Source: Kondoa subrosea
Lineage: Eukaryota
Assembly (NCBI GenBank): GCA_039545335.1
Contig: BCIN01000003.1
Coordinates: forward strand, 1,949,615 to 1,986,064
Direction of reading: 5' to 3'
Length of the DNA: 36,450 nucleotides
The notes beneath the pieces were generated by a model. It had not been told where the DNA came from. It made no database searches and saw only the letters and a list, made by a program, of their open reading frames with translations. Both the position numbers and the translations under genes were made by a program. Below, piece by piece: positions 7,665 through 36,450 of the stretch (its first letter is position 1; every line of letters begins with the position of its first letter).

Positions 7665-8733
7665 TTATAAACCAGCAGCAAGCAAACGAGCTTCAGCTTG
7701 CATTGCTCTTTCTTTCCATTCATCTCGTTCGTCTTTCAATCTTTGCAACTCTTCTTGCTTCCTCTGTCTAGATCGACGAGCAGCAACCGTGTTCTGGACT
7801 GTAGCACCCCGGAAACTTCGCATCAATAATCATTTGATAAACTGCTCAAGAGGAACTCACGTCGCTTTTGTTTGACGGCATCAACAATTTCTGGATCCAA
7901 TTGACCAGTAACCTCATCTCCACCTTTCTGAATAGCAGCAACATCATCTTTTTTGCCCAACTTGCGTTTCTTGATTTGTCTTTGAATCAAAACAGGTACT
8001 TCTTTTCGACTAGTTGCAGAAGGTAAAACGTAATTTCTGTGAGAAGATTGCACGCGCTCAGCTCGAATCAGCTTGGAGTCGTGTGAAGATGCTCACCTTG
8101 CTGCAATAGGAGCATCAATAGCAACAGGTTGGACTGAAGTGTTTCTGAAACCGGTGAATTTGCCTTCTTTTCTCTTGCGTTTACCGCGACCAGTTTCCTC
8201 CTCTTCTACTTCGTCTACTTGAGGTAAAGAGGTAGGAAGCAAATCGGTAGGAGAAGGGAGCATGCCGAAAGGTGGAGAAGAAGGTGAAGGTAATCCCAAT
8301 TCCTGAGGACTGCAGGTACCCATCATCACATTGTTGTCTTGACCGCCAATGTAAGAAGGGTCGAAAGAAGAAGGGAAAAGGGAAGTGAAATCGGTGCTGA
8401 GGTAAGGTAGAGCGAAACCAACAGAATCAGGAGTTGCTTCATCTGAAGGAGAGGGAACCAGATCATCAAGTACCAGACCAGGAGTGGCTAATTGGTGAAC
8501 GGTTTCATCATTGACCAATTGGGAAAAGTCGAATACTGGACCATCGAAAAGAAGACCATGTTCCGGAATGGCGGCAGAAGGAACAGCGGTGTCCTTGATG
8601 ATTTCAGCATTGAGAAGTTGACCAAAGAGATCAGAGTCAAACTCCGAAGTCATATCTGCACACCGAACGGTCAGCAAAACGGGTAAATCGGTCCGCCGAC
8701 GCGTCAAAACTCACCGAATGACTCGAACTTCAT
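7665..8733 (-). CDS. GCN4: Gcn4/Cpc1 bZIP cross-pathway control transcription factor (~295 aa from the AUG)
   Basis: Exons 8733-8715, 8655-8097, 8036-7861, 7798-7665. Basic region KRLQNTVAARRSRQRK; basidiomycete Cpc1-type motif IDAPIAARNYVLPSATSRKEVP; acidic/Phe-rich N-terminal activation region. Confidence 0.9.
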
Positions 8734-8932
8734 GTTTTTTAATTGAATCTGTTTACGTGAGTCTTGAAGCGAACAGATTTGAGCGGGTGTGAAATGTTGC
8801 TTGAGCAATTGATCGATTTCTTGATCTTCCACTAGAGTAGTATTTGTAACAGAAGGAAACAGAGGTACTGAAGATAAATCACCGAATACAGAAGAATAAG
8901 AACTGATAAGAGGAGATTGAAAAGTAAAGGTG

Positions 8933-9064
8933 TTAGCCGAGAGGGAAGGCTGCTGTTGTATCGAAGGATAGACAACAGCAGGCGGAGTACGTTTGTTGGG
9001 ATTGCTCTGTGCTACTGAATGAGACGAGCTGGGTTGGGCGAGGGGAGGCCATGATGGAAAACAT
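8933..9064 (-). promoter_or_regulatory. uORF2 of GCN4/CPC1 (43 codons)
   Basis: accaaaATG in strong context; MFSIMASPRPTQ...AAFPLG*; out of frame with the main ORF and ending about 200 nt before the main AUG. Confidence 0.8.
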
Positions 9065-9116
9065 TTTGGTGAGTGTTCAAGATTTCCTTGAAGGACGCTG
9101 GGTGCGACTGAAGAAT

Positions 9117-9128
9117 TTAGGCAGACAT
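9117..9128 (-). promoter_or_regulatory. uORF1 of GCN4/CPC1 (ATG TCT GCC TAA; MSA*)
   Basis: First AUG of the leader, 3 sense codons, A at -3. Typical reinitiation-permissive uORF1. Confidence 0.85.
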
Positions 9129-9503
9129 TCTGATTTATACTTGAAGAATGTAAGTTTGGCCCAATGCGAATTGTAGTTGAAAGCTGGGGAAAGGCGCTCG
9201 AGGCGTGTAGTAGGACTTGTTGTAGAGAGTGTTAGCGGAGGTCTTGATAGAAGGAAAGTGTTTGAGAAAGAGAGGGCAGAGACAATTTTCAGAGCACGGA
9301 ACGTTACACCGGTTCAGATCGGCTGTGGAATTCGCGGTTACGAAATAAAGCTATGCTACAATGTGATCCGTGTTTCGTTACGTAGTAGTACAAAAGTATA
9401 AAAGACCGAAAACGAGAATGCGAAATGACGAGAGAAAGGAGAGAAATGTCCGTTCAATTTCGACCGCTTATCCAGCTCTGATGCTAGGCAGTCCTGCGAC
9501 CGC

Positions 9504-11851
9504 CTAAACAGCGCTTGAACCATCGTACCACCAGAAGGAGAGAGCTGAAGCGCGAGAGATTAGTAGTGAGCCAAACCCCAAACAAGGCGTGCGTACCGAT
9601 GATGAGGTAGACAGACATGAGCGTCAATCCTTCCAACCAACTATTACGCGACTGAATGAGCATATGTATTTAGTTGATGGAACATTTAACTTACTTTGTA
9701 CGATCATCTTGGATAGCCCAATTGACGATAACGATCGAGATGAATAGAGTCAAAGTCTCAAAGATGTCGAAGAACATAGACAGAGGTTGCCCGATACTGT
9801 GTGTAAAACGTCAGCAACACCTCCTTCCAGAAATGCCTGCACAAAGACTCACGCCCAACCCAATAAGATGAGAACGGGTAAAACGAATAGCGAAATTTGA
9901 ATAGAAGAGCCAACAGCGATAGCAACTATTATAATCTGTCAGCCAACCATCCTTCTTTGACTATAGCGATGTACAACTCACTTGACAAATCCAATCGACC
10001 TTTAACCGCAACCGTGACAGCAGCAACATGTTCCGCAGCGTTACCAATCAAAGGAAGCAAGATGAAACTGATCCAGATCTTGGAAACACCTCTTGATTCA
10101 GCTAAACCATTGATACTGCTAACGAGCCATTCTGAAGTAACACCAGCAAGAGCAGCTAAGAGAAGAACCCGGTCAGAGACTGTTGCGCTTTGTATAGCAT
10201 GTAGAGCGGTGACGTACTGACTGTGAGAAGCAGAACGAAAGCAGCGCTGACTTTGAGTTTGGGTTGATGAACACCATCGTCGTTCGAAGAAGAAGAGGAA
10301 GTTGAAGAAGCTGATTCATCGGCTTCGCCATCGTCAGAACCACGGGAAGAGGAGCTTCCGTGCCAAGATGGAACACGGAAGACGTTGTCTCGCTGAGGAC
10401 GGTTGATGATGATTTCACCATCTGCAGTCTCTTGCGGTTTGTAGTAGAAGCTGTGAGTGAAGAGTTGGAAGACGAGGTAGCTACATAGACGAGTAAGCAT
10501 AGCATGAATAGTCCAAGGAACAAATCCCTTACGCTACATAGATGAATAGCAAGATGAATGCTACACCTCGGCTGAGCGACAGAATGTTGCGTTGCTATGC
10601 ATCAAGTTAGGTATTGTCTTGGACTGCATTGAAGAATAGCTCACAGTCTCGGCATCTTGGGCCGCATTCTGCTCAGGCGTACCACCATTCTGATCTTGAT
10701 AGAAACCAATAGCGGTGTCTGCAGCCAATTAGTCGGCAAGTATATGGCATCAAGACGAAATGACGTACGGAAAGCAGCAGGAATAACGATCGCATGAACC
10801 GATAGACCAAGCATAGAAATGTTGAGCTGAGTATTGCGGACGGAGTAGGGCTGATCATAGTAGCGAAGACCACCAGCAAAGAAGCTACAAGTAACAGTCG
10901 GTCAAATACATCTAAAAGAGACAGATCTCGCTTACCAGCATCCGAGAACCAGTAAAGAGTTTGAAATGATACTTCCCAGCATAGCAGCTTGCACGATAGC
11001 CAATTCGCCCTTGACGAGCCTGTGATCATCATTAGTATTATTCTAGCTAGAGGTGCGAAATCAGGACTCACGCAAGAATGGCCACAATCAATTCGATTGC
11101 GTTACTGAGTCAATTGTCAGCAAAACCCGAGCAGAGAAGAGCAGTAGCATACCCAAACGTAGCATTGAGAAGACCGCCAGCAGCATCACCAACGCGAACA
11201 GCTAATTCTTCGGTAGCGAAAGACAGTAGAGCAGCGCAAGGAATAATAGCGAGAGCCGAGGTGATGAAAACAGCAGTATCGCCAACCTTTGCGAAGTTCA
11301 GGGCCCAACTAGAAGAATCGTTCTTAGCTAAGACACCTTCCGAGTTGAAATTGATAGATTACCTGATGGGAATGCTAGATTAGGCGATGAGATGAGCCGA
11401 CACGTCAGAAGATGCAACGGTTTAGACTCACAAGACCAGTAAGATGTTGAGAGGACTGTAACGAACAGCATTGAGAAAGCAAGCCTTCCAAGCTGATCAC
11501 GAAGATTAATTTCCACAATGTCACGCGATTAGGAGAGCAAATCTTACTTGGCGGCGGTTTGAGAGCTTTCGCTGGTCCGAAGACAGGTTTCTCGAATAGG
11601 GGAGGTTTGCCAGTAGCGTGAGTAACGAAAGCGGGTCTTGCAGGTAAAGGATCTGTGTTGGATCGTTGCAAGGTAGGTGCACCTTCAGCCTGAGCGAAGT
11701 CGCGCACATTCACAGCGTCTGAGCTGCGAGAAATGCGCTTTTCCAAGAGAATTGGGTCTAGTTTGTCGTTTACATTGCCAGCCTTGTCTGGAGACAGGCC
11801 AGCGCCTGATGTTATTGAAGCATGATTAGAGGTTTGAGAAGAATTTGGCAT
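9504..11851 (-). CDS. Ca2+/H+ antiporter (CAX/Vcx1 family)
   Basis: Multi-exon membrane protein with alpha-1 repeat (GLLNATFG..IVAI..ASMLGS) and alpha-2 repeat (LLPLIGNAAEHVAAVTVAVKG). Also LFQLFTH-like YLVFQLFTH, an acidic loop, and a C-terminus WAIQDDRTNWLEGLTLMSVYLIIALSFWWYDGSSAV*. Start codon less certain. Confidence 0.88.
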
Positions 11852-22428: not shown

Positions 22429-25400
22429 TCACCGCTGACCACGTAGCTCCATGATTTGTAAACGAGCTTTTTCCAAGTTTTCCGGATTTCCGACCAAAGC
22501 CAAAGTATCAGCATCTTTCCTTCCAAGCACTTCAACCTGCACATCCGTCTCTTCCCTGAGCAAAGTCAAACCGCTACCTCCTCTTCCAACAACTCGAGGC
22601 ATGAACGATCTCGGTACTTGCAAGTAAGCTAAATGAGTCGCTTTCTTCGCATGCTCCAAGCCAGCATTGACCAGTTCTTCAGCTTTTGTTACGCCTGCTT
22701 CGTTTCCTGATATGATCCACGGGATGGTTTCTTCTGATGAGGAAGAGTTTTCATCCATCAAAGGTAAAACTTCCCAAGCGAAATCTTCGCTTGCTTCATC
22801 GTCTTCCTCTTGGTCGATCCGTGCTGAGGAGGCTGAAGGTTTGCCATTGGCGAAAGGCTTAGGCCTTGCTGCGTTTTGAGCCGGAAGTGTAGCATTGCCA
22901 TGATTTATATTGGTGCCTAATAAAGCGTTAGAACTTGCTCTGGTATATTGATGATGAGCTTACCAGGTGGCAATCGACGGAATATCCTTCCTCCGTCTGC
23001 CACAGCGCGATGCAAGCTAGATGGGACTTCTATTGTCCTCGTCACTTTTCCTCCTCCAGATCTTCCTTGACCAGCATTGCGGCCATTTGCATCGATCTTG
23101 CCAGCTGATGCAGCTGTTTGCGACTGCACATGATGATGTAAGTCATGGTCCTCCATTGTATTGAAGAGGCTTACCTTGATCGCATCGGCGGCAGCTTGAC
23201 ATGCTTCTGCAGATCCCACAATACGAATCAGATCTTGCGCTTCCACATCTTTGACTTCTTCAGCATTGATGAATTCAGCCATGGCAGCGGCTTCCTTCCA
23301 GTTGGGGAAAACTATCTTGACATTGTGCTTAGACTGAAGTTCATTAACATTTGATCCACCTCGACCAATAATTGACGCATGAGAAGATTTCGGCACGCCC
23401 AAGGCATAAACAACTCGATCTTGCAATGCAGAGACTTCCTTCTGGATTTCGTCACGGAGCTTTTCGACTATACTTGCTTTGCCTCGGAGCACAATCAGAT
23501 CGGCTTCAGTATCGTTTGGTCTTGGGAAGCGAAGCATGTAGCCTTGCGAGCGAGAGTCAGTCGGACCTCCAACTTTAGCCATAAGATCACGAACTATACA
23601 CCTCAGTCAGCTAGAAAGGCTTTGGTCAGACAGGAAGACGTACTATTCTGACCACCTTTGCCAATAAGGTTCGACTGCAACGCTCTGTCTACGCGTACTT
23701 CAAGAACAGTCTCTTCATCAGTCTCCTTTGCAATGCCAGCAACGAGCTTCTTTGCGGCAGCAATGGCAGTCTTCGTTCCTCGGATAACGATGGTGTTCTT
23801 CTCGTCGTTTCGGTCAAGTTCAATAGTAGCACCGGTCTCGGCAGCAATTTCGTTGACTTGCATTCCTTGCTTGCCTAAGATGCGAGGAATAGCTTTTGAA
23901 GAAACTGCAATTGAAGTAGTATGGTTGTTTTCGCGTTCATATTCGATTAATTCCATGAGCTGCGAATCAATTTCAACACCCATAAGCAAAAAAAGCTTGG
24001 TAGAGATCAAATCCGCTCACCTCTTTCTTTGCAGAATTGACACCCTTGGAAGGTCCACGTATGCTGATCTCGCTCTTTGCATCTTCAGGTCGAGAGAAGT
24101 TGATCTTGACTTCATACTTGCTTTCGAGACGTTGAGCATACGAGCCTTGTTTACCAATCAGCAGACCACGATCGATACCAGCAGGAACCGGAATAGAGAT
24201 AGCAACTTCGTCAGCCTGAATACAGAAGGTGAGCTTCTGCGCCGAAAAGTTATGAGTGAGACATACAACTCGATCGGCTTGAGCCAGAATACGCTTCTTA
24301 GCTTCTTCCACATTGGCTTTACGGCCTTTGATGACGACTTGATTCCGAGGACGGGTAGATGCTTTCTTTTTGCTTGCAGTAGAACTAGTACCGTTCGCCT
24401 GTTCGACGTCAGAGAAATCGATGCGGACACCCAAATCTTCCTTCAATTTGTTGATGCCTGATCCACCTTTACCGACAATCTATTGCAATCAGTCGTAAGT
24501 ATGTGTTATCTGAGAGTAGAAAGTGCTCTCACATGTGCAACAACCCGGTTATCCACTTCGAACTCAATCTCGTAAGAAGCTTCAACACCTTCGATTTCAA
24601 TTTGTTTCACAGTCTCTTCCAGCTCTTTCTGAACTCGTTGCATCTCTGCTTTAGGTCCTCGGATCTGGACTTGTTCACCAGGACCAAATGAAACAGCTAC
24701 ATCCTTTTCATCCCCAATGATGTTGTTAATGGTCGAATTGTTTGGTCCTTGAACAGCTTTAAGGAGTTTGGAGGGAACAGTGATGATCGAAGTTGAGATT
24801 TCGCCTAAATCGCTGACGATCTTGGTCAAAGCGGCTTTGGCATCTGTATTTTGTATTAGCAAAGACCGGATAATGAGGTAGAGAGAACAACTGACCAATG
24901 ATAGCTCCTTTTGAAGCATTTGGCCAGAGAAGGAAGACAGCATCGCTCTCGTTAGTTTGTCCTCCCCAAGCATCTTCAGCCGGAAAAACCAATTCTAAAC
25001 CTTTATGGTTGTCTAACAAAGTCTTGATAGCTTTAGAGTCCTTGTTCGAGAGTTTCTTGTGTAATAGAGGATCAACAGTGGCAGTTTGGAAATATTGAGG
25101 TGTAAGAGGTTTGATGATCTTGGTAGCTGCTTCTTTAGCTTGAGCAATTGCAGCTTCATCTTCTGCAGTGATATCGATCTCCATTTGATGAGTTGCAATT
25201 TGTTGTTCGGTAGGTAGATGTATTTCAGCAGAAGAGGACACGTCGGAGAAGATATTATGAGCAGCAAAGTATCGACATAAATTTGCGACGTGAGCTTCTG
25301 GAGTAGGAGCAGGGTGGATGGATGTAATATCGATAGTGTCGACCTGAGCTGACTCGGCCTTTTCCATGACTAGACCCATCGCAGCTGTACGTGCTTTGTT

Positions 25401-26744
25401 GTCTCCAGTTCCTCTGAGAGTTATGGTTTCGCTAGCCGAAGCTTGAGGAGGTAGCTCAACGGAGAATCCAGTTTCTTGCAAAACAGCTTCAATGTTGTCG
25501 CCGCGAAGGAAACGATGTTGACGCTTTGGTAAGGAGAGATTGACCGTTCGACAGGTCTTTTTCTGTAAAGCTATGTCAGACGGGACTCAAAAGCTATAGC
25601 AGATGAACTTGCGAGCTCTTGATATGCCTGTTTGATTTTGTCAGCCCATTCACCAAGTTTCTCCTTCTCTACACCCTTGAGTGCAACGTTCCCGGAAGTT
25701 TCGTCAAATTGTACATCGACATCATCTTGTTCCCATTGCGAGTCCAAATTCTTGCGAATCAAAGGCCAGTATACAGCTTCGAAATCAGTTGAAGAGATAA
25801 TTTGAGAATGAGTGACTTGAACAGCTCGATCGCCAACAATTTCCTTGATTCGAGCTTTAGCCAAATCACAAGCATCTTGCGAACCTGAAATGGTGATCGT
25901 GATGGGTTGATCTTCCCCTTCTGCTGATAGATCCTCATTCGGGTCTCGAGGAGGAATAGTGATGTTTGCATTTGTCGCCTCTTGGATGGATTTGAGAGTT
26001 CGGCCTGTGAGTAGCATATTAGCAACGTTCCAAGTCTATACAGCGATCGCAAATTACCTTTGCTGCCAATGATATAGGCTCGGGTGGAAGCAGGAATCTG
26101 CATAGTATCGTGGACCTATTAATTCTTCGTCAGAGTCCTGTCACAATATGCAGCATTTGTCACACCTTTCTGACAATCCTTGCAGTCAGTTCTAGCCTCG
26201 CTTTCTGTATCGCATCATCTGTAGGACCACGTAGCAAGAAAGTAGTAGTCGCTTTACTTGTGCTTGCTTGAATCTGGACGGAAGGCACGACACGCTTGAC
26301 TTGACCAATAGCTTCTCCCAAGGTAGTAGGCGGAGGGTCTTCACCTCTTCTCCTTTGAACTTGAGCAGCTTGCTGAGGTGTGACTAACTGAATTGAAGCC
26401 GAGGCCAGGGAAAGAGTGTCAGAGCAGGCCAACTGAGTATTGACAGGTCTAGAGGTTGCTGCATAGCTGACAGCCGAGGCAGGTGTGCTAGCTCGAGACT
26501 GTTCATCATGTTGTGCAGTCAAATGCGAACCGTTCCAGTTGGCGTTGGCTGATTTCTTGCCTTTACCACCTATAGGTCCAGAGGAAGCTCCCAGGGAAGG
26601 GAAAGCAGACTCGGAGTCCAAGTCAACATTATTGCGTGTTGAAGCTCCGTTCACTCGAGCAGACGACGAGCCCTCTGCTGCGTTGGAGCTGCTGCCTGGA
26701 GCCTGATCTGTAGCGTGAAGGGCTTCGAGATAGGCTGCACTCAT
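22429..26744 (-). CDS. SCP160: Vigilin/Scp160 multi-KH-domain RNA-binding protein
   Basis: N-terminal SESAFPSLG motif and many KH GxxG loops (IIGSKG, IVGKGG, LIGKQG, ILGKQG, LIGKGG, IIGRGG, VVGRGG) across about 10 exons. Confidence 0.92.
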
Positions 26745-34568: not shown

Positions 34569-36450
34569 ATGGCAGCTCCTCCAAAGCCAATCAGGCGTCT
34601 CACGCTCATTGGCAATCATCCTGTCACCACAGCCTCGACTATGCTGGATTTGTACGAGCCATTGGATGTGATTGGCAGCGGAAGTTTCGGAATTATTGTG
34701 AGGGACACTTTGCAACGATCAGTGATACTCTTATTGATACCTGGCACAGCGCACGGTCAAACGAAAGTCTGATGGAGCTGTATGTTCAATAAAGTGAAGC
34801 AATCGAGAAGAATGGCTGACCCTGTGTCATTTCATAGATTCTTGCACGCAAAGAGCTCAATTGGCGCAAGATGGATGAACGAGATCTACGTCAACTGAAT
34901 GAGGAGGTGTAAGTATAATTTCCGGCGGAACTTTGATCTAGCTCACGTATGGACCGTAGCAACATCTTGCAAAATATGCCGCCCAACGAATACATTGTTC
35001 AATATCACGAACGTTTCTTGGACAAATCCAATTGCATGTTGCACATCGTTATGGAGTATTGCGAAAATGGAGATCTCACTCATGTCATTCAACGATGCCG
35101 CCAAGACAATCTGCTTCTACCTGAAGAAGTCATTTGGTCTTACCTTACACAAATCACTCTGGCTCTTCATGACTGTCATGCCGATACCGACTCGCAAGGT
35201 CGAAAGAAGACGGTCGTTCTGCATCGCGATCTCAAACCGGAGAACGTCTTCCTCTCAAAAGACAACATCCTCAAACTAGGCGATTTCGGTCTAAGCAAAG
35301 CCATGTCTGCTAATTTCACCAATACTTACGTTGGTACACCTTACTACATGTCACCTGAACTAATCAATGGTCAGCAATATGATGTCAAGTCCGATATTTG
35401 GGCTTTGGGTTGTTTGATTTACGAACTTTGCGCTTGGCATCCACCTTTCTCTCAAGCTCAAACTCAACCTGAATTAGCAAAGATGATCCGAGATGGCAAG
35501 ATTCCTTCTTTACCTCAAGGTTATACTTCCATGTTGAACCAAGTAGTCAAGTCCATGTTGAGACAAGATCCGAAACAACGTCCTACCACAAAACAAATCA
35601 TGACTTTGGATCAAGTGAAATTACAAATGCGAGCTTTGGATTTGAGGAGATTCAAGAATACTTTGTTAAGGGAGAAAGAAACTGTTGCGAGGGAGAAGCA
35701 AGCTTTGAATGATCGAGCCAATTTACTAGCTGAAAGAGAACAAGCAATTGCTGAAAGAGAAGGAGCGGTCATGGAATTGGAGCAAAGTTTGATTGATCGA
35801 GAAACGGCTTTGACAGAACGAGAACAGCAAATTGCGAATTCGGATCATCGGGAAATGGCTTTAAGTGAGAGAGAACGGATTTTGGAGAGTGAAGAGCAAA
35901 GAGTTCAGCAAGAAAGGGATAATTGGGTTCAGGAGAAGAACAGACTCGCTCAAGCTTTAGGCATTTCGCCTACTTTACTTCAAGGTCAAGGTCAATCTGC
36001 TTCTTCATCCTCATCAGATGGACGCAACAGTATGCAGAGCAGTTATGGCTACGAGGATTCGGATCAGTATTACCAGCATTCGAGAGACAACAGAATGCCC
36101 AGTCTTGGTTCGATAGCTTTGGCTCTACCGAATATGGGTGAAAAAGGTGATGCGGCGATACGAAGAGTTGCGAGTCGCCCTAGCTTGGTTCCTAGACCTC
36201 CTCTGGAAGAACGAAGAGCTAGGTAAGTTTCCCTCAACAGCTTCTTATAAGCAGAACTGATCTCCAGATGCAGCAGCCAAATCACTCGTCGCATCTCTAC
36301 CAACAGTGTCATGAGCTTGGACGACACACCTGTCAAATCACCTACCTACTCCTATCAACAGCAGCAATACCTCACTCGCGCATCACAAAACATGGGTTCT
36401 GCCGAACGATCTTGCCCACCCTCTTCAGAAAACCGTCGAAGAATGATCGC
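34569..36450 (+). CDS. NIMA/Nek2-family Ser/Thr protein kinase (3' partial)
   Basis: YEPLDVIGSGSFGII|RTVKRKSDG|ILARKELNW..EV|NIL, HRDLKPENVFL, KLGDFGLSK, TYVGTPYYMSPE, followed by a coiled coil (LAEREQAIAERE repeats). Runs off the window. Confidence 0.93.

Follow-up and report, generated by a model that had tools for sequence, protein, structure and literature searches.

The main reading frame of a likely Gcn4/Cpc1-type bZIP gene stays open for 166 sense codons upstream of its start codon and runs through two open reading frames located upstream (uORFs). The gene lies on the minus strand of the window (i.e. the whole stretch of 36,450 nt that was analyzed). The best explanation, and on balance a probable one by analogy with known leaders, is a 5′ leader of the Gcn4/Cpc1 type, in which uORF control by delayed reinitiation would be combined with a stop-free main frame giving longer isoforms. 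Such a layout has already been described for cpc-1 homologs of 100 Pezizomycotina and 32 Basidiomycota (Ivanov et al. 2017, mBio, PMC5487733), so that the locus appears to be a further example of the published AUG-less extension and not new in kind.

Gene model and 5′ leader

The bZIP gene likely occupies positions 9240-7665 of the minus strand, with four predicted exons encoding 295 aa from the ATG at 8733. Its parts are the following:

8715-8733, minus strand: exon 1, first in-frame ATG at 8733-8731, A at -3 (putative splice)
8656-8714, minus strand: intron 1, 59 nt, GTGAGT...CTGAC...CAG, predicted from splice signals
8097-8655, minus strand: exon 2, acidic and hydrophobic region, second ATG at 8653 (homologs P0001-P0003)
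8037-8096, minus strand: intron 2, 60 nt (junction contiguous in P0001 and P0002)
7861-8036, minus strand: exon 3 (gene model, comparison with P0001 and P0002)
7799-7860, minus strand: intron 3, 62 nt (junction contiguous in P0001 and P0002)
7665-7798, minus strand: exon 4, basic region and leucine zipper, stop TAA at 7667-7665 (Pfam bZIP_1, below cut-off)

Exon 2 had only three homologs (P0001-P0003) near its length range in 5.8 billion protein clusters, all of them environmental records. Among longer proteins no homolog of exon 2 and no annotated extended form was found. The small number of homologs indicates a poorly represented lineage, so that the power of the searches to detect a conserved extension was low. 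Intron density and the layout of the leader point to a probable basidiomycete.

The bZIP domain of exon 4 matched Pfam bZIP_1 with an E-value of 7.5e-5 and 23.2 bits, under the cut-off of 27.6 bits; P0001 and P0002 share the same bZIP, and their scores were likewise under the cut-off. PDB matches of P0001 were exclusively GCN4 chains (four out of four distinct sequences, E 0.014-0.042). For exon 4 alone, GCN4 accounted for four out of seven matches, the remaining three being designed repeat proteins. Together with the layout of the leader, the sub-threshold bZIP scores and the GCN4 matches make a Gcn4/Cpc1 homolog the likely identity of the gene. A Pfam search of the extension and of exon 2 returned no family. 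We also noted that residues 1-30 of P0002 form a basic stretch of similar spacing where the window and P0003 have an acidic block (EFDSDLFGQLL type); P0002 could be a paralog, or its short contig could contain a frame error.

Introns 2 and 3 are confirmed: two environmental proteins, P0001 and P0002, continue without interruption at the exon 2/3 and exon 3/4 junctions. Splicing of intron 1 is predicted from its signals GTGAGT, CTGAC, and CAG. This intron carries the sole strong 5′ splice site within 9560-8640, and its removal restores the reading frame exactly. Much depends on it, as ATG 8733 and the extension are joined to the main ORF only if the predicted 59-nt intron is spliced. Were it retained, ATG 8733 would open a third uORF of nine codons with its stop within the intron, the protein would start at ATG 8653, and the 166-codon frame would be unconnected. 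The position of ATG 8653, directly before the block conserved in P0003, agrees with retention, and the splice is predicted from sequence rather than from cDNA. However, the signals and length of intron 1 match those of the confirmed introns 2 and 3, its removal restores the frame exactly, and with retention the long open frame would be left as pure chance. We therefore regard retention as very improbable.

The leader comprises the following elements:

9232-9234, minus strand: bounding in-frame stop TAA, 5′ limit of the open frame (translation)
8734-9231, minus strand: 166-codon AUG-less extension of the main frame (translation and simulations; coding-like codon usage only at 8934-8734)
9169-9171, minus strand: in-frame ATT, candidate start, A at -3 (ACA before), 43 nt 5′ of the uORF1 ATG, 146 codons before ATG 8733 (codon scan)
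9163-9165, minus strand: in-frame ATT, candidate start, G at +4, 37 nt 5′ of the uORF1 ATG, 144 codons before ATG 8733 (codon scan)
9136-9138, minus strand: in-frame ATA, candidate start, A at -3, 10 nt 5′ of the uORF1 ATG, 135 codons before ATG 8733 (codon scan)
9117-9128, minus strand: uORF1, ATG and two further codons, then TAA (MSA-stop), A at -3, in frame +1 with respect to the main frame (translation)
8933-9064, minus strand: uORF2, 43 codons plus TAA, ATG 9064 with A at -3, in frame -1 with respect to the main frame (translation)
8903-8990, minus strand: weak candidate intron, 88 nt, GTACTC...CTAAC...CAG (splice-signal scan)

A very short 5′ uORF followed by a longer one is thus present (three codons from ATG 9128 and 43 codons from ATG 9064, both with A at -3). 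A second ATG in the frame of uORF2 lies at 9052, with A at -3 and G at +4. The uORF2 stop occupies 8935-8933, leaving 199 nt between the end of uORF2 and ATG 8733.

The preliminary description of this DNA had claimed a main frame free of stops and ATGs from 9231 to ATG 8733, bounded by the TAA at 9234-9232 and crossing both uORFs. Retranslation agrees: the 166 sense codons at 9231-8734 contain neither a stop nor an in-frame ATG, and the bounding TAA lies 103 nt from the uORF1 ATG. The absence of an in-frame ATG is uninformative and true by construction, since whichever in-frame ATG came first after the stop was taken as the start.

The positions and contexts given in the same description for ATT 9171, ATT 9165, and ATA 9138 were also reproduced. 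Over the whole extension, twelve in-frame near-cognate codons were counted: three 5′ of uORF1, one within the span of uORF2, and eight downstream of uORF2, with none between the two uORF ATGs. The best context among all twelve belongs to ATC 8817 (G at -3, G at +4). In-frame near-cognate codons within the 34 codons 5′ of uORF1 are to be expected by chance, and for this reason their presence adds no evidence. RNA folding downstream of the ATT codons was unremarkable (z = -1.18).

If the weak intron at 8990-8903 were spliced in at least some transcripts, ATGs 9064 and 9052 would be joined to the last 56 codons of the extension, and the long isoform would be AUG-initiated. The GT...AG pair comes with a CTAAC branch site and a pyrimidine tract, its removal restores the main frame, and its 3′ end falls at the start of the coding-like stretch described below. 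Against this, the 5′ site (GTACTC) has no G at +5, which all three other introns of the gene possess, frame compatibility has a probability of 1 in 3 by chance, and a uORF2 of 35 to 70 codons is reported as conserved in the family (PMC5487733). Such splicing thus seems most improbable. If it did occur, uORF2 would be either a translational brake or the exon with which the coding sequence of a long, AUG-initiated Cpc1 begins.

Chance and coding signal in the open frame

The length of the open frame was compared with first-order Markov simulations (4000 trials per composition), counting open runs of at least 166 codons. Such runs were obtained in 12 of 4000 trials with the composition of the leader, in 15 of 4000 with the G-poor composition of the extension itself, and in 2 of 4000 with that of the window. 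The open frame of 166 codons is therefore unusual at the level of about 0.3%. The other two frames of the same span contain five and four stops.

Possibly, the open frame is only a by-product of base composition in a leader that is poor in G and rich in C and T, and is neither meaningfully translated nor functional, with only the uORFs and ATG 8733 being of importance. The sense strand of the extension contains 12.7% G, which by itself lowers the frequency of stops, and stop trinucleotides occur at a frequency of 0.025 across the whole leader versus 0.040 in the window. Long open frames can arise in this window without being genes, as illustrated by an ORF of 269 codons without Pfam match at 23652-24461 on the plus strand. 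Located opposite a multi-KH-domain gene (22429-25586, minus strand), it is probably an antisense artefact of codon bias. A by-product would also accord with a codon signal that is weak over the extension and absent 5′ of uORF1, with a peptide lacking homologs, and with an AlphaFold2 single-sequence model of mean pLDDT 38.8. Arguments against it are the rarity of such runs even in the composition-matched simulations, the coding-like last 67 codons, and published data, in which the feature is reported for 132 of 132 analyzed homologs, with purifying selection in Pezizomycotina (PMC5487733). Overall, we consider a by-product unlikely.

Codon usage was scored with a table trained on eleven Pfam-supported exons of the window, with stop codons excluded from the score. 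The advantage of the main frame, given in bits per codon, is its score minus that of whichever other frame scored higher:

Whole extension: 0.059
34 codons 5′ of uORF1: -0.27
Middle part of the extension: 0.03
Last 67 codons (8934-8734): 0.257
Real exons, 498-nt windows: median 0.240, 10th percentile 0.105
Real exons, 201-nt windows: median 0.227

The whole extension thus falls below the 10th percentile of real exons, and codon usage gave no coding signal in the 34-codon stretch 5′ of uORF1, which contains the proposed starts. The value of the last 67 codons was reached by 0.6% of 172 windows from stretches without long ORFs (overlapping windows, small null set of 3.6 kb). Of the extension, only this 3′ part looks coding on its own, and the last ~67 codons are the likeliest part to matter as protein.

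The 172-aa extension peptide had no match among the proteins of 94-301 aa in 5.8 billion clustered proteins, and a single one, P0004, among 1.84 billion representative proteins. P0004 was rejected as a homolog of the extension: it is a repeat protein of 1074 aa, in which matches of ~45 residues were summed over seven repeats. Two scans of metagenome contigs for orthologous loci returned no locus in one case and only L001 in the other; L001 was dropped, as it matches just the coiled-coil word KDERDEW in an unrelated ORF.

A possible counterpart was found in P0003. The 31 residues preceding its conserved acidic block match residues 140-150 of the extension in the main frame with a score of 31, compared to scores of 16 and 20 in the other two frames. 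Of 3000 shuffles in each case, 79 attained this score against the whole extension and 7 did so against its last 60 residues, which were picked after seeing the match. As a weak match in a single pair, it suggests that the 3′ part of the extension may correspond to translated sequence in this relative.

These observations could also mean that only the 3′ part is coding and that translation starts downstream of uORF2, at ATC 8907, CTG 8862, GTG 8832, or ATC 8817. The resulting extensions of 28 to 58 residues would still be under the control of the uORFs. The codon signal is confined to 8934-8734, in-frame near-cognate codons are present there (with ATC 8817 in the best context of the twelve), and the P0003 motif match falls inside this part. 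Yet such a start would leave 99 further open codons across both uORFs unexplained, and the conserved codon reported for basidiomycetes sits 5′ of uORF1 (PMC5487733). We judge this reading improbable.

The AlphaFold2 single-sequence model of the extension showed no fold, with low-confidence helices at residues 136-165. On its own, this result is neutral and has no bearing either way.

Comparison with published cpc-1 leaders

The preliminary description had invoked Neurospora cpc-1 and filamentous-fungal homologs as a precedent for non-AUG extensions. This precedent is real and comprises the 100 Pezizomycotina and 32 Basidiomycota homologs reported by Ivanov et al. (2017). For Basidiomycota, their paper describes (i) a stop-free main frame from uORF1 to the main AUG in 32 of 32 homologs, with the nearest in-frame stop at least 77 nt upstream of uORF1; (ii) leaders with three to four upstream AUGs; (iii) a first near-cognate codon 5′ of uORF1, which in Agaricomycetes is mostly AUU and lies at least 31 nt 5′ of the uORF1 AUG; (iv) an extension of ~120 residues in Agaricomycetes; and (v) patchy conservation within the 50 residues before the main AUG (PMC5487733).

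Every architectural feature listed in that paper for Basidiomycota cpc-1 homologs is present at this locus. The leader has three upstream AUGs, with a uORF1 of four codons (counting the stop) and a long uORF. From the main AUG, the stop-free main frame reaches back beyond 77 nt upstream of uORF1 (103 nt here), and AUU codons in favorable context are found 37 and 43 nt 5′ of the uORF1 AUG, as in Agaricomycetes. The coding-like signal near the main AUG parallels the published conservation in the preceding 50 residues, and an upstream neighbor gene is close by, as reported for Leucosporidium (PMC5487733). Two differences were noted with respect to this account. The possible extension of 135-146 residues exceeds the ~120 residues of Agaricomycetes, and uORF2 ends 199 nt before the main AUG, without overlap.

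In Pezizomycotina, AUG-less in-frame extensions are reported for 100 of 100 cpc-1 homologs, the shortest comprising 160 codons, and purifying selection is reported for them (PMC5487733). According to the same source, uORF1 has 3-6 codons and uORF2 has 35-70 codons, always in the -1 frame, and conserved near-cognate codons (CUG, AUU, ACG) lie between the two uORFs. The N. crassa extension is given as more than 700 nt, with its use shown in vitro; four near-cognate codons initiate in vitro, and the in vivo data are described as "consistent" (PMC5487733). The present leader resembles these in its two uORFs, which are within the size ranges, in the -1 frame of uORF2, and in its 166 open codons. 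A bypass of uORF2 by near-cognate initiation, as in N. crassa, is here only proposed by analogy. Unlike in Pezizomycotina, the candidates for such a bypass are all located 5′ of uORF1, with none between the uORF ATGs.

For S. cerevisiae GCN4, the paper describes four uORFs and no in-frame N-terminal extension (PMC5487733), and the open extension found here differs from that arrangement. Common to both are the C-terminal bZIP and, as far as the layout of the present leader suggests, uORF-based reinitiation control.

As the three homologs of exon 2 are all environmental, the gene may fall outside the 32 Basidiomycota species analyzed by Ivanov et al. (PMC5487733). That its lineage lies outside all those analyzed in 2017 and, in addition, sets the long isoform by splicing of 8990-8903 instead of by a non-AUG start alone is a combination to which we give very little credence.

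Proposed control of Cpc1 synthesis and neighboring genes

In the Gcn4 model, uORF1 is translated, scanning resumes, and ribosomes reinitiate at uORF2 and then leave the mRNA. Under starvation, ribosomes pass uORF2 and reach the main start. By analogy, most scanning ribosomes on the present leader would translate uORF1 and then uORF2 or, under starvation, proceed past uORF2 to ATG 8733. A minority would start before uORF1, at AUU 9171, AUU 9165, or AUA 9138, and would translate the main frame across both uORFs. The products would be Cpc1 isoforms that are 135 to 146 residues longer and whose synthesis escapes inhibition by uORF2. This mechanism assumes a transcript start upstream of 9171 and splicing of intron 1, both of which are presumed. 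The last-exon ORF of the upstream neighbor ends at 9504, ~270 nt from TAA 9234. Since this spacer must hold the Cpc1 promoter and the transcript start, transcription could also begin downstream of the ATT codons. Considering the likeness to published leaders, we find it reasonable to infer that a second layer of control by non-AUG starts may operate here.

If the longer isoforms are made, some output of the master regulator of the amino-acid starvation response would bypass the uORF gate, and the N-terminus of Cpc1 would be under-annotated in standard gene models. Since 2017, an output of this kind has been suggested for over 130 homologs in fungi, to which the locus adds one case and no new principle. 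Its practical value is that of an annotation caveat and, if the lineage is poorly sampled, of one more sequence for comparative tests.

The upstream neighbor (9504-11360, minus strand) is a multi-exon gene for a Na/Ca exchanger (CAX-like), an assignment confirmed in the protein atlas, with a GNAAEH-type motif in the exon at 9929-10315; the spacer between it and the Cpc1 leader is very short. A search of the whole window (1-36450) returned neither tRNA genes nor Rfam families at gathering score. On the plus strand, adjacent ORFs at 1289-2549 encode RWD (E 2.6e-13) as well as RING and IBR domains (IBR E 8.2e-9), a layout that is that of an RBR-type ubiquitin ligase. Finally, a protein kinase exon is located at 34937-36223 on the plus strand (Pkinase, E 5.4e-49), and its nearest protein atlas cluster is named Nek2-like.
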